Below are positions 23,258-58,285 of a DNA stretch of 64,000 nt, piece after piece. The DNA comes from an uncultured Clostridium sp. Its GTDB lineage: Bacteria; Bacillota_I; Bacilli_A; RF39; UBA660. The notes under the pieces were generated by a model. The model saw only the letters and a program-made list of their open reading frames with translations, was not told the DNA's origin and did not search any database. Location: positions 384-64,383 of the forward strand of contig CABUQZ010000005.1 in the NCBI GenBank assembly GCA_902493795.1, in the 5' to 3' direction. Numbering within the stretch: the stretch's first letter is position 1; each line of letters opens with the position of its first letter. The translations under genes and the position numbers were made by a program.

Positions 23258-23662
23258 CTAAATATTTTTTATATCTAATACATCATCTATATCAATAGAA
23301 GTTTTATCACTTAGTATTAATTTTCTATAAATATAATCTATCTTAACAACAACAGTATCTTTATCACAGTATTGTCCGGTGTTTTTTTCTTTATTTTCTC
23401 TAAAGTATCTTATTAGTACTTTCTTATTTAAGCATTCTTTTAGCTTCTCATCTAAAAGAGCTTTTTCGTCATCTGATAAAATTACTTTTGAAAATTTTTC
23501 TTTTTCCTTTTCTTTTACCTCATCACCATATCCAGTTAATGCAGCAAAAGGAGCAAAAATAGCACTCCTATTATAAATACTCATTCTAACATGTTTGCTA
23601 CTAGGTTCATGGTGTGGCATATTAATGATATCTTCATAATTATTCACTTCTATGACCTCCAA
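23258..23662 (-). CDS. YolD-like protein (accessory to a Y-family polymerase)
   Basis: It lies immediately downstream of, and overlapping, the polymerase gene. MPHHEPSSKHVRMSIYNRSAIFAPFAALTGY resembles the YolD family. The start is uncertain: TTG at 23662, GTG at 23647 after GGAGG, or ATG at 23620. Confidence 0.55.
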   Translation of the reverse strand: MEVIEVNNYEDIINMPHHEPSSKHVRMSIYNRSAIFAPFAALTGYGDEVKEKEKEKFSKVILSDDEKALLDEKLKECLNKKVLIRYFRENKEKNTGQYCDKDTVVVKIDYIYRKLILSDKTSIDIDDVLDIKNI

Positions 23663-25139
23663 TTTCCATATTTCTTTCTATCATTGTAGCACCTTCTTCT
23701 AAGTCCATTCCTTTAAGTATAGAGTTTTTTCCATATTTAGCTTTTAGCTCTATTAATGTTTTTTGAATATTTCTTTCTTCTTTTTCCAGTTCCTTTTTCT
23801 TTTTCAAATCTTTATCGCACTCTTCTTGATCACTAAATAAATCAAATTGCTTATATATTTTATTTTCTACTATTTCTTCTTCTAAAGATAAATTACATAC
23901 AGCTATATTTATTCGTCTTACTAAAAGAATTGGATTAGCGATTCTATCGAAAAGTCTCATTAAATGTTCTGTTATTACTTTAGTAGAAGATGTTTTATGA
24001 TCAATTCTAATTGTTCCATGATCTGGCTTTGGTACACTTCTTCCATAATGATCTTTTTCAATTACCCCAGTATACATAGACATTATTTTATGATTTTTTA
24101 AATTACTAACATCATATCCAATAGTAAGTACAATAATATCTGTTAAAAATCCCTTTTTTACCATATCAAGAGTTAACACCTCTGCCATTTCTCTTACTAT
24201 TAGTCTTGTTTTATCATAAGAATATGGTTCTTTTAAAACTTGTCCTTGTGAAAGACTCGTTGTTGTAGGTTTGTAGTTCTTAACATCTTTTAAAGTACAA
24301 GGTTCGTATCCCCAAGCATGATCAATTATAAGTTCAGCATTTACCCCAAACATTTTATATAAATCATCCTCATTAGTTAAAGAATACCTAGCAATATCTC
24401 CCATTGTATAAAGTCCTAAAGTCTTTAATCTACTAGAAAGACCTCTTCCTATTCTCCAAAAGTCAGTCAAAGGCTCATAAGACCACAATCTTTTTCGGTA
24501 ACTCATTTCATCAAGAAAAGAAATTCTTACTCCATTTTCTGAAGGATCACAATGTTTAGCATCAATATCCATAGCTATTTTAGCAAGATACAAATTAGTT
24601 CCAATACCACCAGTTGCAGTTATTCCTGTTTGCTTATAAACATCTGTAATAATCATTGAAACTAACTCTAAAGGAGTTTTCTTATAAAGCTTTAAGTAAT
24701 TAGTAATATCACAAAAAACCTCATCTATAGAGTAAGCAAAGATATCATCTTTAGATAAATATTTAAGATAAATACTATAAATATCTGTACTGTACTTCAT
24801 ATAAAGAGCCATTCTAGGAGGAGCTATTATATAGGAAAGCTCCAAATCATTATTTTTCAAATCTTCACTATTATATGATTTTCCAATAAAATCTCTATTG
24901 TTGTTTTTTTTCTTTCTTATAAGATTTACTTCTTTAACTTTTTGTACCACTTCATAAAGTCTAGAACGTCCTGAAAGTCCATAAGCTTTTAACGATGGTG
25001 TTACAGCAAGACAGATTGTTTTCTCTGTTCGAGATGAATCAGCAACAACTAAATTCGTAGCAAGTGGATCAAGCTTTCTTTCAACACATTCACAAGAAGC
25101 GTAAAAACTTTTTAAATCAATACAAGCATAATATCTCAT
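23640..25139 (-). CDS. Y-family (UvrX/ImpB/DinB-like) translesion DNA polymerase
   Basis: MRYYACIDLKSFYASCECVER...ICLAVTPSLKAYG...SIDEVFCDIT. A C-terminal QFDLF clamp-binding-like motif is present. The start is set to the ATG after GGAGGGAGGAG. Confidence 0.85.
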   Translation of the reverse strand: MRYYACIDLKSFYASCECVERKLDPLATNLVVADSSRTEKTICLAVTPSLKAYGLSGRSRLYEVVQKVKEVNLIRKKKNNNRDFIGKSYNSEDLKNNDLELSYIIAPPRMALYMKYSTDIYSIYLKYLSKDDIFAYSIDEVFCDITNYLKLYKKTPLELVSMIITDVYKQTGITATGGIGTNLYLAKIAMDIDAKHCDPSENGVRISFLDEMSYRKRLWSYEPLTDFWRIGRGLSSRLKTLGLYTMGDIARYSLTNEDDLYKMFGVNAELIIDHAWGYEPCTLKDVKNYKPTTTSLSQGQVLKEPYSYDKTRLIVREMAEVLTLDMVKKGFLTDIIVLTIGYDVSNLKNHKIMSMYTGVIEKDHYGRSVPKPDHGTIRIDHKTSSTKVITEHLMRLFDRIANPILLVRRINIAVCNLSLEEEIVENKIYKQFDLFSDQEECDKDLKKKKELEKEERNIQKTLIELKAKYGKNSILKGMDLEEGATMIERNMEIGGHRSE

Positions 25140-25249
25140 AGCTCCTCCCTCCATTAAATAAGATAACACTTTTTTATACAAAATGCAAGAACATTTGTTC
25201 GACTATAACAAAAAAAATAAAAACGCAAAACTTTAATAAAGTAAGCATT

Positions 25250-51030: not shown

Positions 51031-51429
51031 CTACTTTTTATTAATATTAGTTAATAAATAATCATATGTATTTATATATGTTTTATCGATATTATCTTCA
51101 CTTTTACTTATTACAATATCGATAACTTTTTTAGTATATTTTATATTTAAATCTTTTTTATATGTTTTATCATCTTTATCATCTTTTGGATAAAATAAAC
51201 TATAACGCTCAAATGACTTAGTTAAATCGTTTGGTTTTATCTTTTTCATTATTTTTCCATATATGAAACTAGATTTTTCATCATCTTTAGAAAAGAAAAT
51301 GCTTTCTAAATCTCTTATATTTGTTCTTTCTTCTTCTAAAAGATAATATAGGGCCATCCCATATTCAGTAAACTCAGATAATCTAGTTTCAAGTTTTTTG
51401 CTAGTTTTCTTATCAGTTAATAATGCCAT
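51031..51429 (-). CDS. Hypothetical protein (132 aa) encoded between parE and parC
   Basis: It starts 22 nt after the parE stop and ends 8 nt before the parC start. It is Lys/Asp/Tyr-rich, with no TM helix and no recognised motif. Confidence 0.6.
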   Translation of the reverse strand: MALLTDKKTSKKLETRLSEFTEYGMALYYLLEEERTNIRDLESIFFSKDDEKSSFIYGKIMKKIKPNDLTKSFERYSLFYPKDDKDDKTYKKDLNIKYTKKVIDIVISKSEDNIDKTYINTYDYLLTNINKK

Positions 51430-51451: not shown

Positions 51452-53350
51452 TCAGTTTATTTTATAATCATCTTCAAGTGAAAAAACAACGTTTTCTTCT
51501 ATCCAAGCTTTTCTAGGCTCGACATTATCACCCATAAGAACACTTACACGTTTTTCAGCAAGTAAAGCATCATCAATCTTTACTCTTATTAGTTTTCTAG
51601 TTAAAGGATTCATTGTTGTATCAGCAAGCTGATCAGCGTTCATTTCACCTAATCCTTTATATCTTTGTATTTCACACTTTTTACCCTTTGACTTTTCCTG
51701 CATTTCTTCAATTGTATAAGCATAATCTATATTCTTACCACACTGTATTTTAAAAAGTGGAGGAAGTGCAATATAAAGTTTACCTGCTTCAATTAAAGGT
51801 CTCATATAACGATAGAAAAAAGTCATAAGAAGACACTGAATATGACCTCCGTCTTCATCAGCATCGCTCATTATAATTACTTTATCATATTCACAATCAT
51901 CTATTTCAAAGTTAGGTCCATACCCAGCTCCAATAGTATAAATCATGGTATTAATTTCTTCATTTTTAAATATATCATCTAAACTAGCTTTTTCAGTATT
52001 AATTACTTTTCCACGTAAAGGAAGTATTGCTTGAAACTTTCTATCTCTTCCTTGTTTTGCAGAACCACCAGCTGAATCACCCTCTACTAAGAATAATTCG
52101 TTTTTATTTTTGTTTTTTGATTGAGCAGGAGAAAGCTTTCCAGATAAAGCTCTTTCTTTTTTGTTATTTGCTTTTCCTTTTCTTGCTTCTTCTCTTGCTT
52201 TTCTTGCAGCTTCTCTTGCTACTTTACTTTTTAATGATTTATCTAAAATATCAGTAGCAACTTTTTTATTTTCTTCAAGAAAATACTGAAGCTTTTCACT
52301 AACTATTACTTCAACTACATTTCTAGCAGCAGGTGTTCCTAGTTTACCTTTTGTCTGTCCTTCAAATTGCAATAAGTTTTCAGGAATTCTAAGACTTATA
52401 ATAGCAGTTAACCCCTCACGCACATCGCTACCTTCAAGTGAACTATCTTTTCCTTTTATATAATCATTATTTTTAGCATAATCGTTAAATACTCTTGTTA
52501 AAGCAATCTTAAATCCAACTTCATGAGATCCTCCATCTGGAGTTTTAACGTTATTAACAAAAGATATTATGTTTTCTTGATAGTCATCAGAATACTGCAT
52601 AGCAATATCAACATCGATATTATCTTTTGATCCTTCAAATGAAATAACTTTATGAAGTGGATTTTTATCTTCATTTAAATACTCGACAAACTCTCTTAAT
52701 CCATTTTCATAATGAAATTTATTTACTCTTCCACTTTCTTCATCTTTTACTTCTATTGTTAAAGCTTTAAGTAAGAAAGCAGATTCTTGCATTCTTTCAG
52801 AAATAGTTGAAAAAGAAAAATTAGTTACAGGAAATATTTCTGGATCAGGTTTAAATCTTACTGTTGTACCTGTTTTATTTGTAGTTCCAATTACTTTTAG
52901 AGGAACCTCTACTTTACCACCATCTACAAACTTAATATAATGTTCTTTCTTATCACGTCTAATAGTAACTTCCATCCATGATGACAAAGCGTTAACAACA
53001 CTTGCACCAACACCATGAAGACCACCAGATACTTTGTATCCACCTTCTTCAAATTTTCCACCAGCATGCAAAACAGTATAAATAACTTCAGTAGCACTTT
53101 TACCAGATTCATGAATTCCGGTAGGGACTCCTCTTCCATGATCTTCAACACTTATACTACCATCTGTATGAATAGTAATACAAATATAGTCCCCAAATCC
53201 ATTTATAGCTTCATCTATCGAATTGTCTACAATTTCCCATACTAAATGATGTAGTCCTTTTTTATCAGTAGAACCAATATACATTCCAGGTCTTTTTCTA
53301 ACTGCTTCTAATCCTTCTAATATCTTAATAGACTTCTCATCATATGCCAT
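51452..53350 (-). CDS. parE: DNA topoisomerase IV subunit B
   Basis: LEGLEAVRKRPGMYIGST, LHHLVWEIVDNSIDEA, GGLHGVGASVVNALS, Toprim motif LVEGDSAGGSAKQGRDR, and IMSDADEDGGHI. Confidence 0.85.
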   Translation of the reverse strand: MAYDEKSIKILEGLEAVRKRPGMYIGSTDKKGLHHLVWEIVDNSIDEAINGFGDYICITIHTDGSISVEDHGRGVPTGIHESGKSATEVIYTVLHAGGKFEEGGYKVSGGLHGVGASVVNALSSWMEVTIRRDKKEHYIKFVDGGKVEVPLKVIGTTNKTGTTVRFKPDPEIFPVTNFSFSTISERMQESAFLLKALTIEVKDEESGRVNKFHYENGLREFVEYLNEDKNPLHKVISFEGSKDNIDVDIAMQYSDDYQENIISFVNNVKTPDGGSHEVGFKIALTRVFNDYAKNNDYIKGKDSSLEGSDVREGLTAIISLRIPENLLQFEGQTKGKLGTPAARNVVEVIVSEKLQYFLEENKKVATDILDKSLKSKVAREAARKAREEARKGKANNKKERALSGKLSPAQSKNKNKNELFLVEGDSAGGSAKQGRDRKFQAILPLRGKVINTEKASLDDIFKNEEINTMIYTIGAGYGPNFEIDDCEYDKVIIMSDADEDGGHIQCLLMTFFYRYMRPLIEAGKLYIALPPLFKIQCGKNIDYAYTIEEMQEKSKGKKCEIQRYKGLGEMNADQLADTTMNPLTRKLIRVKIDDALLAEKRVSVLMGDNVEPRKAWIEENVVFSLEDDYKIN

Positions 53351-53516: not shown

Positions 53517-54143
53517 TCATTTACCAAGTAATTTTCTAAGTTGAAGTTTATAAGATTCATCGCGTTTCTGATAACCTTTATAATTTAAATATAATGCTCT
53601 CATTTCTTTATAATCTAAAAAAGATTCAATAAGCATTTCTGTTTTTAAAGCTTCTCTATTACTTGCTAAAGCTCCAATAAGCTTTTTACTATAATCACTA
53701 AGTCTTTTGTCATTAGATTTACTACATTCAACAGAAAGAGCAAATCCACTACCTATCTTCTTTATTTCAGAAATCATCTCATCAAATATACTAAAAACAA
53801 TAGGTAAAGAAAAATCAACTTTATCTTCAGTAATTTTAGATAAAGCATTTAATTTATAATCATTCCATATAACATTATAAAATTTATAATTATCCTTTTT
53901 GTCATATCTATACATTATTTTATAGCTATATGAATTATTATTTTCTTCTAAAGGATTAAGATAAAGTTCAAAATCTCTTTCATCATCAAATAAAGTAGTC
54001 ATTGCATCAATAGTAGAAAAATTAGAACTTTTTACTTTTGACTCAGTAAACTTCATCGAAGAAAAATCAAAGTGTTCTAGTTTTCCACCTAACTCATTTT
54101 CTCTTACCAAATAACAAGTCTCTGTACTTTTTTTCTTTTTCAT
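53517..54143 (-). CDS. Hypothetical protein (208 aa), paralogue of the upstream ORF
   Basis: Its start overlaps the upstream stop (ATGA). It aligns with the 254-aa ORF in several blocks, e.g. FDEMISEIKKIGSGFA vs FDEVYQEIIKKDSEFA and DYKEMRALYLNY vs KYREFRSIYMNY. Confidence 0.65.
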   Translation of the reverse strand: MKKKKSTETCYLVRENELGGKLEHFDFSSMKFTESKVKSSNFSTIDAMTTLFDDERDFELYLNPLEENNNSYSYKIMYRYDKKDNYKFYNVIWNDYKLNALSKITEDKVDFSLPIVFSIFDEMISEIKKIGSGFALSVECSKSNDKRLSDYSKKLIGALASNREALKTEMLIESFLDYKEMRALYLNYKGYQKRDESYKLQLRKLLGK

Positions 54144-54904
54144 TCTAAATTACCACTTTCAAACATTGACATTTGATGAGGATTAACAATAACTTTTCTT
54201 TTAGGTTTTTCTTCATTAACACTAACTTGTTCCATTTGAGGTTTAAACATTTTACAATAATTCATATATATAGATCTAAACTCCCTATATTTTGATATTG
54301 AGTTTTTTAAATCTTTATAAAAACCTACTTTATCTGACGAATAAATCTCATAAACTGAGTTATACGAAGTAATAGAACCAACAGGAAAACCTAATTCTCG
54401 TTTGGCTCTAATTGCATTTTCATGAGCTCTTAAACTAACAATAATATTAATTGATTTTTGAGAAATATTTATTTTATTCTTTTTGCTCTTAATTAACATT
54501 GCTGCAAACTCTGAATCTTTTTTTATTATCTCTTGATACACCTCATCAAAAGCTTTTAAGTTCTCTTTATCTACAAAATTAATCTTTTTTCCATTATAAG
54601 TAATTGCAATATGTGCCCAAACAGGATTATTAAATATTGGTGCAATCTTCTTTTCTCCATTAAACTGATAAGAAATGTACATTAATGCTATAGGATCTGT
54701 TATCCCATAAGTACTAGCAAGTTCTTCTCTACTAGAAAAATTAGATGTCAAAAAATCAAGCGCAGGAAGCGTTGATTTTGAAGGTGTATCATTAATATCA
54801 AGTTTTACAAACCTATTTTTTTGTTTATCATAACAATATCTTTCATTTTTATCTGTAACAGCAATTAAACTGTAACGAGGTGCTCCATCAAAATTTTCTA
54901 CCAT
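54140..54904 (-). CDS. Hypothetical protein (254 aa) with a C-terminal QMSMF tail, paralogue of the downstream ORF
   Basis: It starts 29 nt downstream of the priA stop. No recognised domain. The C-terminus is ...VIVNPHQMSMFESGNLE. Confidence 0.65.
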   Translation of the reverse strand: MVENFDGAPRYSLIAVTDKNERYCYDKQKNRFVKLDINDTPSKSTLPALDFLTSNFSSREELASTYGITDPIALMYISYQFNGEKKIAPIFNNPVWAHIAITYNGKKINFVDKENLKAFDEVYQEIIKKDSEFAAMLIKSKKNKINISQKSINIIVSLRAHENAIRAKRELGFPVGSITSYNSVYEIYSSDKVGFYKDLKNSISKYREFRSIYMNYCKMFKPQMEQVSVNEEKPKRKVIVNPHQMSMFESGNLE

Positions 54905-54933
54905 AAATATACCTCACAATGTTTGTTATTGTA

Positions 54934-57090
54934 TCATGAGATAGGATTAAAATCAATGTCAATACTAATATTAGAATTACTTTTGTAATACTCTAACAAT
55001 CTAGTTAAAAAAGGATATAAGTTGTCTTCTTTTTTATATTTAAGTGTGATACCAAACCTATAAGTATTATTAACTTTAAATGTACTTCCAATAGAAGGTC
55101 CAAGAACTATTGTATTTTTCAAGTTGTCTTTTAGTTTATATGCAATAACATTGCTTTCTTTTTTTACTAAATCATAATTTTTACTTATAACTTTAATTGA
55201 CACTAAAAAGTAATATGGAGGATATCCTAATGTTCTTCTAATATTCATTTCCTCTTTAAAAAACATTTCATAGTTTTGTGTCTTAGCAAGTTTTATAGCA
55301 TAATGATCTTTATTAAATGTTTGAATTATTACCATACCTTCTTTTTCACTTCTACCACTTCTACCAGATACTTGAGACAAAAGTTCGAACGTGTATTCAC
55401 TACTTCTAAAACTAGGTATCATTAAAGAAGTATCAGCATTTATTACGCCAACTAAAGTAACATTAGGAAAATCAAGTCCCTTAGCAATCATTTGAGTACC
55501 TAATAAAATATCATATTCTTGATTTCTAAAAGCATTTATTATTTTTTCATGTGCTCCTTTTGTACTAGTTGTATCAAAGTCCATTCGAATAACTCTAGCA
55601 TCAAACAACTTGTTTAGTTCTTCTTCAATTTTTTCAGTACCAACGCCTAAATTTTTAACAGCTTTCTCATGACAACTAGGACACTCAATATGACGAGGTA
55701 CAGCATATCCACAATAATGACATCTTTCCATATCACTCGACTTATGATAAGTAAGAGTAACATCACAATTAGGGCATTTACTTACATAACCACAATTAGA
55801 ACATGTAACAAAAGATGCATACCCCCTTCTATTAAGTAAAAGAATAATTTGTTCTTTTTTACTAAGCTTATCATTTATTGCTTGAACTAAAGCCGAAGAA
55901 AAATAACTTCCTCTCTTTTCTTTATTCATATCGATAATATTAACAACTGGTAAAGGTTTATTATTTGCTCGCTTCTTAAGTTCAATTAAATGATATTTCT
56001 TAACAATAGCTCGAGAATAACTTTCAAGTGACGGAGTAGCACTTCCTAAAACTACTTTGGCATTATGATATCTTGCTCTTTCTAGTGAAACATCAATTGC
56101 GCTATATTTTGGATTAGACTCCTGTTTATAAGTATTAGTATGTTCTTCATCGATAATTATGATTCCTATATTTTTTAATGGTGCAAAAATAGCACTTCGT
56201 GCCCCAATAACAATCTTAACAAGACCATTAGAAATTTTCCTATATTCATCATATTTTTCTCCTTCACTAAGTCTACTATGAAGAATTGCAATATAATCTT
56301 TAAACCTTGATTTAAATCTAAAAACCATTTGTGGAGTAAGAGAAATTTCAGGAACAAGCACAATTGCACTCTTATTAAGTAAAAGCATTTTTTCGATAAG
56401 TTCAATATAAACTTCTGTCTTACCACTTCCAGTAACACCATAAAGTAAAAATGTAGAATCATCAGACTTTAATATAGTATCGACAGCCATTTGTTGTTCG
56501 CTATTAAGAGGATACTTAGGATAATTATATTCATCACTATCTTTTAAACGATAATTTTCAACTAAGATTTCTTTCAAAATGTTTTTAGAAAGAAGTGTTT
56601 TAACAGATGAAGAAGAAATTTTATTAAGCTCTTCTTTTCTATTATTACCCCTTGCTATATTATCTAAAATTAGTTTTTGACTATCATTTAATTTTACTGT
56701 TTCTAATTCTTCTTTTGTAATATTTAGTTCTAAAAGTCTAATAAAAGATTTATTAATTTTAGTCTTATTCTTTGCTTTTAAAGCTTTAGGAAGCATTGCT
56801 TGATATGCACTAATTAAAGTGCACAAAGTCTTATCTTTTATATATTTTCCAAGAGATAATAATTCATCTGTTAAAATTACTTCACTATCAACTACTTCAT
56901 CTATTTCTTTTAAATCATCTTGTAAAGAGTTATTTATTTCCATAATAAAACCTTCAAGTTTTTGTTTACCAAAAGGCACTTTTACTCTAACACCCACTTT
57001 GATATCTTTTTCTTGACTAGGTTTTACTTTATAAGTAAATAATTTATCGATATTTCTATTTGATAATTCAACTAATACATTAACAGTCAT
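54934..57090 (-). CDS. priA: Primosomal replication-restart helicase PriA
   Basis: Walker A LLYGVTGSGKTEVY, plus IIIDEEH and the Cys cluster CSNCGYVSKCPNCDVTLTYHKSSDMERCHYCGY...CPSCH. Confidence 0.95.
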   Translation of the reverse strand: MTVNVLVELSNRNIDKLFTYKVKPSQEKDIKVGVRVKVPFGKQKLEGFIMEINNSLQDDLKEIDEVVDSEVILTDELLSLGKYIKDKTLCTLISAYQAMLPKALKAKNKTKINKSFIRLLELNITKEELETVKLNDSQKLILDNIARGNNRKEELNKISSSSVKTLLSKNILKEILVENYRLKDSDEYNYPKYPLNSEQQMAVDTILKSDDSTFLLYGVTGSGKTEVYIELIEKMLLLNKSAIVLVPEISLTPQMVFRFKSRFKDYIAILHSRLSEGEKYDEYRKISNGLVKIVIGARSAIFAPLKNIGIIIIDEEHTNTYKQESNPKYSAIDVSLERARYHNAKVVLGSATPSLESYSRAIVKKYHLIELKKRANNKPLPVVNIIDMNKEKRGSYFSSALVQAINDKLSKKEQIILLLNRRGYASFVTCSNCGYVSKCPNCDVTLTYHKSSDMERCHYCGYAVPRHIECPSCHEKAVKNLGVGTEKIEEELNKLFDARVIRMDFDTTSTKGAHEKIINAFRNQEYDILLGTQMIAKGLDFPNVTLVGVINADTSLMIPSFRSSEYTFELLSQVSGRSGRSEKEGMVIIQTFNKDHYAIKLAKTQNYEMFFKEEMNIRRTLGYPPYYFLVSIKVISKNYDLVKKESNVIAYKLKDNLKNTIVLGPSIGSTFKVNNTYRFGITLKYKKEDNLYPFLTRLLEYYKSNSNISIDIDFNPIS

Positions 57091-57155: not shown

Positions 57156-57644
57156 TTAACTTAAATTATACATACTTTTTAAAGTTTTAGCATTAACTTT
57201 TTGATTTGGAAACATATCGTTTTTCTTTTTTAATTTAAATTTAAGTGTATTTCTAGTTGTTTCTATTGTAATTGTTTTAGAAAATAACCCAGAAACCTTT
57301 AATCTTTTTATTTCTTCTCTTCTAATTCTAAAGATATGAGTTATTCTCTTTTTTTCTAGTTTAGAACAAGCAAATAATATTAATTCCATTTCATTAAAGT
57401 TAATTATAATATCTTGTCCATCAACATTTACTGCTTTTCCATAAGAAGTATAGGCATATGTACCAGTACTACCTTCACATAAAATATAATTTTGAATATT
57501 TAATCCTAAATTCATAAACATTCCAGTAATACATGCTTGATTAAATTCAGGCATATCATAACTTTCAGGCAAAACAATTTGTCTACAATTAGGACAAAAA
57601 CTTAAACCTGGGCTTAGTGGAAATCCACATCTAATACATTTCAT
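57156..57644 (-). CDS. Zinc-ribbon protein with a PH/YokE-like C-terminal domain (tentative)
   Basis: MKCIRCGFPLSPGLSFCPNCRQ. The C-terminal beta-rich segment is not firmly identified. The start overlaps the rnhB stop by 4 nt. Confidence 0.5.
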   Translation of the reverse strand: MKCIRCGFPLSPGLSFCPNCRQIVLPESYDMPEFNQACITGMFMNLGLNIQNYILCEGSTGTYAYTSYGKAVNVDGQDIIINFNEMELILFACSKLEKKRITHIFRIRREEIKRLKVSGLFSKTITIETTRNTLKFKLKKKNDMFPNQKVNAKTLKSMYNLS

Positions 57645-58285
57645 TTTATCTCTCCTTTGTTAATTTTATCTAAGTAAAAACATACTGGTTTAAAAGTTTT
57701 ACGATGTTCTTCTATTATCCCATACTCTTTTATTGCTTCAATATGTTTTTTTGTTCCGTATCCAGCGTTGTTTTTAAAGTCATACATTGGATACTTTTTA
57801 TCTAATTCTTCAAGCATTCTATCTCTTGTTACTTTAGCAATAACACTAGCAGCGCTAATTGTTATACTCTTATAGTCACCTTTGATTATAGAAGTAGTTG
57901 GTATATCTATATCAAGTTTCATAGCATCAATTAAAACGTGCTCTATTTTACATTTTTTCTTACAATTATCAATAGCTTCTATCATAGCAAGTTTAGTAGC
58001 TTCATAAATATTAACTTCATCAATTACTTTTTCACTTTTAATACCTATTCCTACTGCTAAAGCATCTTTCATAATAATATCATAAAAATATTCTCTTTTT
58101 TTCTTTGAAAGTTTTTTCGAGTCTGTAAGTCCTTCAATATAATAATCTTTAGGAAGAACAACACAAGAAGTAACAACAGGCCCAACCAAAGGACCTCGTC
58201 CTACTTCATCAACACCAGCAATATAAATAATTCCCTTTTCATTTAGTTCTTTTTCATAAGCTCTATTATCTATATCTATTTTCAT
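57641..58285 (-). CDS. rnhB: Ribonuclease HII
   Basis: AGVDEVGRGPLVGPVV, DSKKLS and ASVIAKVTRD. Confidence 0.9.
   Translation of the reverse strand: MKIDIDNRAYEKELNEKGIIYIAGVDEVGRGPLVGPVVTSCVVLPKDYYIEGLTDSKKLSKKKREYFYDIIMKDALAVGIGIKSEKVIDEVNIYEATKLAMIEAIDNCKKKCKIEHVLIDAMKLDIDIPTTSIIKGDYKSITISAASVIAKVTRDRMLEELDKKYPMYDFKNNAGYGTKKHIEAIKEYGIIEEHRKTFKPVCFYLDKINKGEIK

Follow-up and report, generated by a model that had tools for sequence, protein, structure and literature searches.

A paralogous protein pair encoded beside priA in uncultured gut Bacilli, with a candidate clamp-binding tail on one partner

Directly downstream of priA in an uncultured Clostridium sp., two overlapping genes encode a pair of related proteins, which we call X and Y. 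The family to which they belong is undescribed in the libraries and literature that we searched. The longer protein, X, ends in a tail whose conservation is characteristic of functional short linear motifs of the clamp-binding class. The carrier of this motif is new, and the docking principle is well known. The reading that we favor as a whole, with a probability of roughly 55%, is that X and Y are a non-enzymatic accessory of replication or chromosome maintenance that is tethered to the sliding clamp, DnaN.

Gene order and the X/Y family

The window analyzed here is a stretch of 64,000 nucleotides; positions are counted from its first letter, and every feature located in it below lies on the minus strand. 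Read in that direction, the gene order is rnhB (57641-58285), a 162-aa open reading frame (57156-57644), priA (54934-57090, 718 aa), X (54140-54904, 254 aa), Y (53517-54143, 208 aa), parE (51452-53350), a 132-aa open reading frame (51031-51429) and parC. priA is thus the reading frame directly upstream of X, and 29 nt separate its stop codon from the start of X. Six nucleotides 5' of that start codon the sequence reads GAGGT (54911-54915), a ribosome-binding site. The stop codon of X overlaps the start codon of Y in the tetranucleotide ATGA (54140-54143), which indicates translational coupling. The initial annotation, which had described two reading frames of 254 and 208 aa that overlap by ATGA and follow priA after 29 nt, is correct in its coordinates and features. 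Between Y and parE there is a gap of 166 nt.

The layout recurs in relatives, where the X/Y junction is equally tight or opens to a gap of at most 13 nt. The priA orthologues beside relatives of X contain the domains PriA_3primeBD, DEAD, Zn_ribbon_PriA and PriA_C. A search for terminator-like sites found none between priA, X and Y and none after Y. We infer that priA, X and Y are probably transcribed together and that co-transcription possibly reaches on to parE and parC. The GC content of X and Y is slightly below that of the neighboring genes without being distinct from it. An island of foreign DNA was considered and rejected, since the GC content shows no break at X and Y.

Two further reading frames of the neighborhood deserve mention. 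The 162-aa frame overlaps the stop codon of rnhB and encodes an N-terminal, zinc-ribbon-like CxxC...CxxC; it has no Pfam match, is present at two related loci (L002 and L038) and is absent from two others (L001 and L039). The 132-aa frame, also without a Pfam match, keeps its position between parE and parC in every relative examined from the genus, as well as in two further genera that belong to the priA-linked clade described below (L053 and L057). Its product might be a partner of X and Y or of topoisomerase IV.

X can be divided into three parts. Its core domain (residues 1-222; 54239-54904) comprises an N-terminal beta/alpha part and then a basic helical part, the latter with a pI of 9.7 and a net charge of +10. 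A disordered linker follows (residues 223-243; 54176-54238), in which the basic stretch KPKRKVIVNPH lies directly before the pentapeptide QMSMF (residues 244-248; 54161-54175). This pentapeptide, in the tail peptide ...KVIVNPHQMSMFESGNLE, is the candidate beta-clamp-binding motif. Y lacks the tail; it also lacks a helical hairpin that is inserted in X at about residues 150-200 (LRAHENAI...).

In their remaining length X and Y are, on the evidence of their profiles, true paralogues. BLASTP aligns the two proteins weakly, with 24% identity over 130 aa and an E-value of 3e-4. The decisive result is the profile-profile comparison: hhalign matched a profile of 16 X orthologues to one of 13 Y orthologues over 185 columns, with a probability of 99.1% and an E-value of 1.4e-18. 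It reproduced all four of the segment pairs on which the initial annotation had based its claim that the proteins align lengthwise.

No family had been recognized in either protein at the outset, and that judgment still holds. Pfam gave no consistent match for X, Y or 53 family members; NCBIfam, PHROGs and PADLOC gave none for X, Y and selected family members. A search of the PDB sequences with the family profile found nothing, and no clear match to an unrelated known family appeared in any of these searches. The X/Y family has no recognizable enzymatic domain. Four residues, D50, T53, Y206 and R210, are invariant over the 53 members.

Structure prediction gave confident models without counterparts. 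AlphaFold2 modeled X with a mean pLDDT of 80 and a pTM of 0.75, most of residues 8-222 scoring above 85, and Y with a pLDDT of 88.8 and a pTM of 0.85. The two models share a plan of three beta strands, two helices, a beta hairpin, a helix and a helical bundle. Foldseek, a comparison proposed in the initial annotation, returned no credible fold match for the X model in the PDB and BFVD or for the Y model in the PDB. The best E-values were 0.06-0.19, at probabilities of at most 0.33, and the TM-scores of the top hits were at most about 0.2. Both models are thus without a fold relative in the databases searched.

The C-terminal motif of X

Clamp-binding peptides follow the consensus QL[S/D]LF or QxxLF, in which positions 1, 4 and 5 are critical; PolC of Bacillus subtilis carries QLSLF at its C-terminus (PMC12309361). 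QMSMF fits the pattern Q-x-x-[L/M/F]-F at these key positions, and it lies near the C-terminus of X, where the initial annotation had placed it. The segment that holds it is flexible and exposed. AlphaFold2 predicts residues 225-254 to be disordered (pLDDT <50), and in a natural fusion of X and Y the motif sits in the linker between the two domains.

Does this pentapeptide behave like a functional motif? We compared 28 motif-bearing proteins from the priA-linked clade. A stretch of 28-67 aa that cannot be aligned lies between their last core helix and the motif, which is followed by 0-17 residues. Within these drifting flanks, position 1 is Q in 28/28 and position 5 is F in 24/28. Position 2 is L in 12, I in nine and M in seven, position 3 is S in 22/28, and position 4 is M in 12, F in nine, L in five and I in two. 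There is a preference for P at position -2 (20/28) and for D or E directly after the motif (19/28), so that the consensus reads P-x-Q-[LIM]-S-[MFL]-F-[DE]. The motif has been kept through a clade whose members differ by over one substitution per site, and its retention therefore counts as evidence, though it has been lost in Y and in some lineages. The expectation that the tail would be conserved in orthologues is borne out. Related motifs also occur in other deep branches of the family, as GQLSLFD, GQISMFE, NQLSFF and EQMSMF.

The position of the motif is as unusual as its sequence. In the 464,841 residues encoded by the source genome, the pattern Q[LIMV][STD][LIMF][FLY] occurs 13 times. Within the last 25 residues of a protein, it occurs in only two of the 1256 reading frames of at least 150 aa: PolC (...DQLSLF) and X. 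A C-terminal motif of the clamp type is far rarer in the source genome than chance would give. The same genome encodes DnaN, as a 382-aa open frame that spans G000 C1:79034-80104. The Y-family polymerase of the window (23640-25181; domains IMS and IMS_C) carries QFDLF, as had been pointed out before, and does so 10 residues after IMS_C. The PolC reading frame itself lies outside the window (G000 C3:25922-30874). It ends in QLSLF and spans 1650 aa from its first in-frame start, presumably roughly 200 aa more than known PolC proteins, which suggests an N-terminal extension or a false start upstream.

Like PolC and other clients of DnaN, X has Q at position 1, hydrophobic residues at positions 4 and 5, and a flexible C-terminal end. 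Unlike the known clients, it combines the motif with a protein that contains no known domain, be it of a polymerase, a repair protein or any other kind. It also differs from the clients with QL[S/D]LF in that Met is frequent at positions 2 and 4 across the X family, as in QMSMF. We consider it likely that X binds DnaN through this motif, a prediction from its sequence.

An alternative is that the tail docks a partner other than DnaN or serves folding or turnover, in which case X and Y would be a DNA-binding or structural family with no link to the clamp. Relatives elsewhere in the family do bear different conserved tails, F/L-D-G-L-G...KKLILKR and LFPPNSEEE..Y..YLDSLP, which makes the tail look like a swappable docking module whose target need not be the clamp. 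Tail-less copies, moreover, suffice in some species. To our knowledge, on the other hand, the motif resembles neither the acidic tail of SSB nor any other known terminal docking peptide. Within the source proteome PolC is the only other protein with such a motif at its C-terminus, and none of the key positions departs from the clamp consensus (PMC12309361). On balance we regard a partner other than the clamp as unlikely.

Distribution and ancestry

A profile search of 1.84 billion representative proteins found only 68 relatives of X and Y. Among 399 genomes scored in a sample of the whole class, 15 matched, 14 of them in the GTDB family of the window and one, marginally, elsewhere. Within that GTDB family, 67 of 301 genomes encode members of the X/Y family, as do 53 of 214 genera. 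The X/Y family is absent or undetectable in the remainder, about three quarters of the genera, so it is either accessory or evolving too fast to trace. The named records are uncultured 'Bacilli bacterium' MAGs recovered from the gut of rabbits and roe deer, and the genomes measure 0.8-1.9 Mb. A tblastn search of phages and plasmids and a scan of IMG/VR yielded no relatives. By these searches the X/Y family is confined to a single GTDB family of small-genome, uncultured gut Bacilli. At one locus (L032, G378:C9, 505-1278), in a 0.8-Mb genome of this bacterial family, a family member adjoins a gene for SpoIIGA (Peptidase_U4), so some of its reduced genomes keep sporulation genes.

The genus of the source genome offers the closest view of the locus. 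Wherever the family was found among its 17 species, it stands between priA and parE, in a variety of forms. X and Y are separate genes in seven species. One species has an X-Y fusion of 464 aa that keeps the motif, as QQISFF, in the inter-domain linker (G007, L011/P0035), and another has X alone with a degenerate QLSMN. Five species have a single tail-less gene of the Y type, one has three adjacent paralogues, and in two the family was not detected. The three paralogues (L013, G014:C17, 121-2834) precede parE and encode proteins of 224, 447 and 217 aa, the second of which is itself a tandem fusion of two domains. This lineage, with its four copies of the domain, has no clamp motif. Tandem fusion of the domain has occurred in a second, independent lineage (P0043, P0044, P0050 and P0059). 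Since five species keep only a tail-less copy, docking to the clamp is not indispensable in those species. Together with the motif-less lineage of four domains, they show that the core function does not strictly depend on the clamp tail.

Outside the genus we surveyed the context of 52 loci. Family members lie directly after topA in 16 and directly before xerC in 22; in nine they follow priA, seven of these directly, and four are also directly 5' of parE. The clamp-type tail accompanies the position beside priA. It is present in 9/9 of the priA-linked copies from outside the genus, as seven pentapeptides and two QL[VT][FI]PGF, versus 5/44 of the other copies. The association gives a Fisher p of 4.5e-7, a value that is inflated because all of the priA-linked copies group in a single clade (SH-aLRT 93) and amount to only one independent pair. 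The move to priA and the gain of the clamp tail are accordingly a single historical event rather than repeated convergence. The initial annotation had looked to the linkage with priA in other genomes for support. The linkage is indeed found in relatives and in other genera, where the position after priA recurs, but it goes back to that single event, and the pair as such occurs only in 7/17 species of one genus.

Inside the priA-linked clade, X and Y form two sister branches (SH-aLRT 94), the second of which also includes the single genes of the Y type. The pair thus arose by tandem duplication within the genus, Y then lost the hairpin and the tail, and some species later lost X.

Most members of the wider family lie between topA and xerC and have tails that are not of the clamp type. 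Two kinds recur at these positions, ...[FL]DG[LM]G...KK(L)ILKR and ...LFPPNSEEE..Y..Y[LM]DSLP... (seen at L027, L031, L047, L052 and L072 and at L051, L056, L058, L062 and L067). These recurrent C-terminal peptides may be docking motifs for other partners. At a further locus (L044, G645:C5, 5299-8248) four additional reading frames (224-251 aa) separate priA from the family gene. They are two pairs of paralogues in alternating order, each containing a hydrophobic segment, and could be assigned to no family.

Proposed function and its alternatives

How might X and Y work together? The core domain, of about 200 aa, is most likely dimeric. Species with one gene would have a homodimer, the source genome an X:Y heterodimer, and the natural tandem fusions a pseudo-dimer. 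Translational coupling and the natural fusion of X to Y make the heterodimer plausible, and the fusions also support the notion that the two proteins act together. X and Y were duplicated from a gene that is single elsewhere, for which the passage from homodimer to heterodimer is the simplest path. We therefore lean slightly toward a complex of X and Y, as their gene structure suggests.

In the mechanism that we propose, the flexible linker of X, 20-60 aa long, ends in the conserved P-x-Q-[LIM]-S-[MFL]-F-[DE], and this peptide most likely docks in the hydrophobic pocket of DnaN as does the C-terminal QLSLF of PolC. Docking would concentrate X:Y on clamp-loaded, newly replicated DNA, which the basic helical domain of X may contact. 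With its one tail, X:Y would fill one of the two pockets of the clamp dimer and leave the second free, whereas a homodimer from a single gene would bear two tails. X:Y could then assist replication restart or the unlinking of sister chromosomes, either as an adaptor without catalytic activity or as an accessory that binds DNA.

There is precedent for such a mode of action. ImuB, of the mycobacterial ImuA'-ImuB-DnaE2 mutasome, is a non-catalytic adaptor that is tethered by a clamp motif and serves partners encoded beside it (PMC10421592); we propose the same working mode for X. ImuB differs in having a Y-family polymerase fold and in being damage-inducible, and neither X nor Y has detectable similarity to it.

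The choice between restart and unlinking is harder to make. Adjacency to priA, parE-parC, topA and xerC points weakly to one or the other. In Bacilli the gene order around topA-(trmFO)-xerC and around priA joins unrelated functions; in B. subtilis, for instance, trmFO lies between topA and xerC. Because such clusters mix functions, the neighborhood is a weak functional pointer. A role specific to replication restart seems to us doubtful, and one specific to sister-chromosome unlinking is doubtful to the same degree. Of the heterodimeric, DnaN-tethered restart factor envisaged in the initial annotation, the clamp tail is upheld by its conservation, the heterodimer is plausible and the restart role is doubtful.

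A broader proposal would unite the different contexts. X, Y and their relatives might be modular docking adaptors for replication and unlinking, built on a dimeric core whose exchangeable C-terminal peptides address different hubs. The core itself would attach to DNA or to an enzyme from a neighboring gene, whether PriA, topoisomerase IV (ParE/ParC), TopA or XerC. The hub addressed by the priA-linked clade would be the sliding clamps that remain in the wake of the fork, and restart or decatenation activity would be delivered to newly replicated DNA. The duplication into X and Y would then have made a heterodimer with one tail, leaving the second clamp pocket free. We offer this scheme as speculation and think it unlikely in full.

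Could X, with Y, instead regulate initiation or the use of the clamp, as a functional analogue of YabA or Hda? YabA of B. subtilis is a small, oligomeric, non-enzymatic DnaN binder of the Firmicutes, which also binds DnaA and is not known to use a terminal pentapeptide of the X type. X is likewise small and apparently non-enzymatic, and it has a clamp motif. The source genome and 24 relatives, moreover, have no above-cut-off match to YabA (PF06156), whereas the controls from B. subtilis and L. lactis do score. Yet YabA is missing too from related lineages without the X family, so the two distributions are not complementary. X has no PF06156 match and no similarity to YabA in sequence or fold, and its genomic context is different, with no gene-order link to dnaA or dnaN. 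These points make a YabA-like regulator quite improbable. The same 25 genomes do contain canonical DnaD and a DnaB-type loader.

It is very improbable that X and Y are a selfish or conflict module lodged beside priA, such as a toxin-antitoxin or anti-phage system with a toxin that targets the clamp as SocB does. Two small genes that overlap by 4 nt, evolve fast, are patchily distributed and have a GC content slightly below that of their neighbors would suit such a module. X and Y are paralogues of each other, however, which is unusual for toxin-antitoxin partners, and they are found naturally fused. Their locus is fixed and vertically inherited across the genus and a clade of genera. Neither PADLOC nor PHROGs gave a match, and no copies were found on phages, plasmids or viral contigs.

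The idea that X and Y are highly diverged forms of the primosome proteins DnaD and DnaB, which are structurally related to each other and act downstream of PriA, draws on the position directly after priA and is effectively refuted: the source genome already has a canonical DnaD (226 aa) and a DnaB-type protein (435 aa), with DnaB_2 domains, the 53 family members have no PF07261 match, hhalign of the family profile against these two proteins gave probabilities below 1%, Foldseek retrieved no DnaD or DnaB structures, and no homology of X and Y to either was found.

What, then, would a clamp-tethered accessory of this kind tell us? The list of known bacterial clamp riders is incomplete and comes almost entirely from cultured model species. 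X is a candidate for a new clamp client, one with no recognizable domain or fold relative. It and Y are encoded beside genes for restart and chromosome unlinking in a large uncultured gut lineage of reduced genomes. If X does bind DnaN as predicted, X and Y would illustrate the way in which lineages of this sort supply their replisomes with adaptors of their own. The forms that bear one tail, two tails or none, together with the fused ones, would then also provide a natural series for studying how occupancy of the clamp is tuned.
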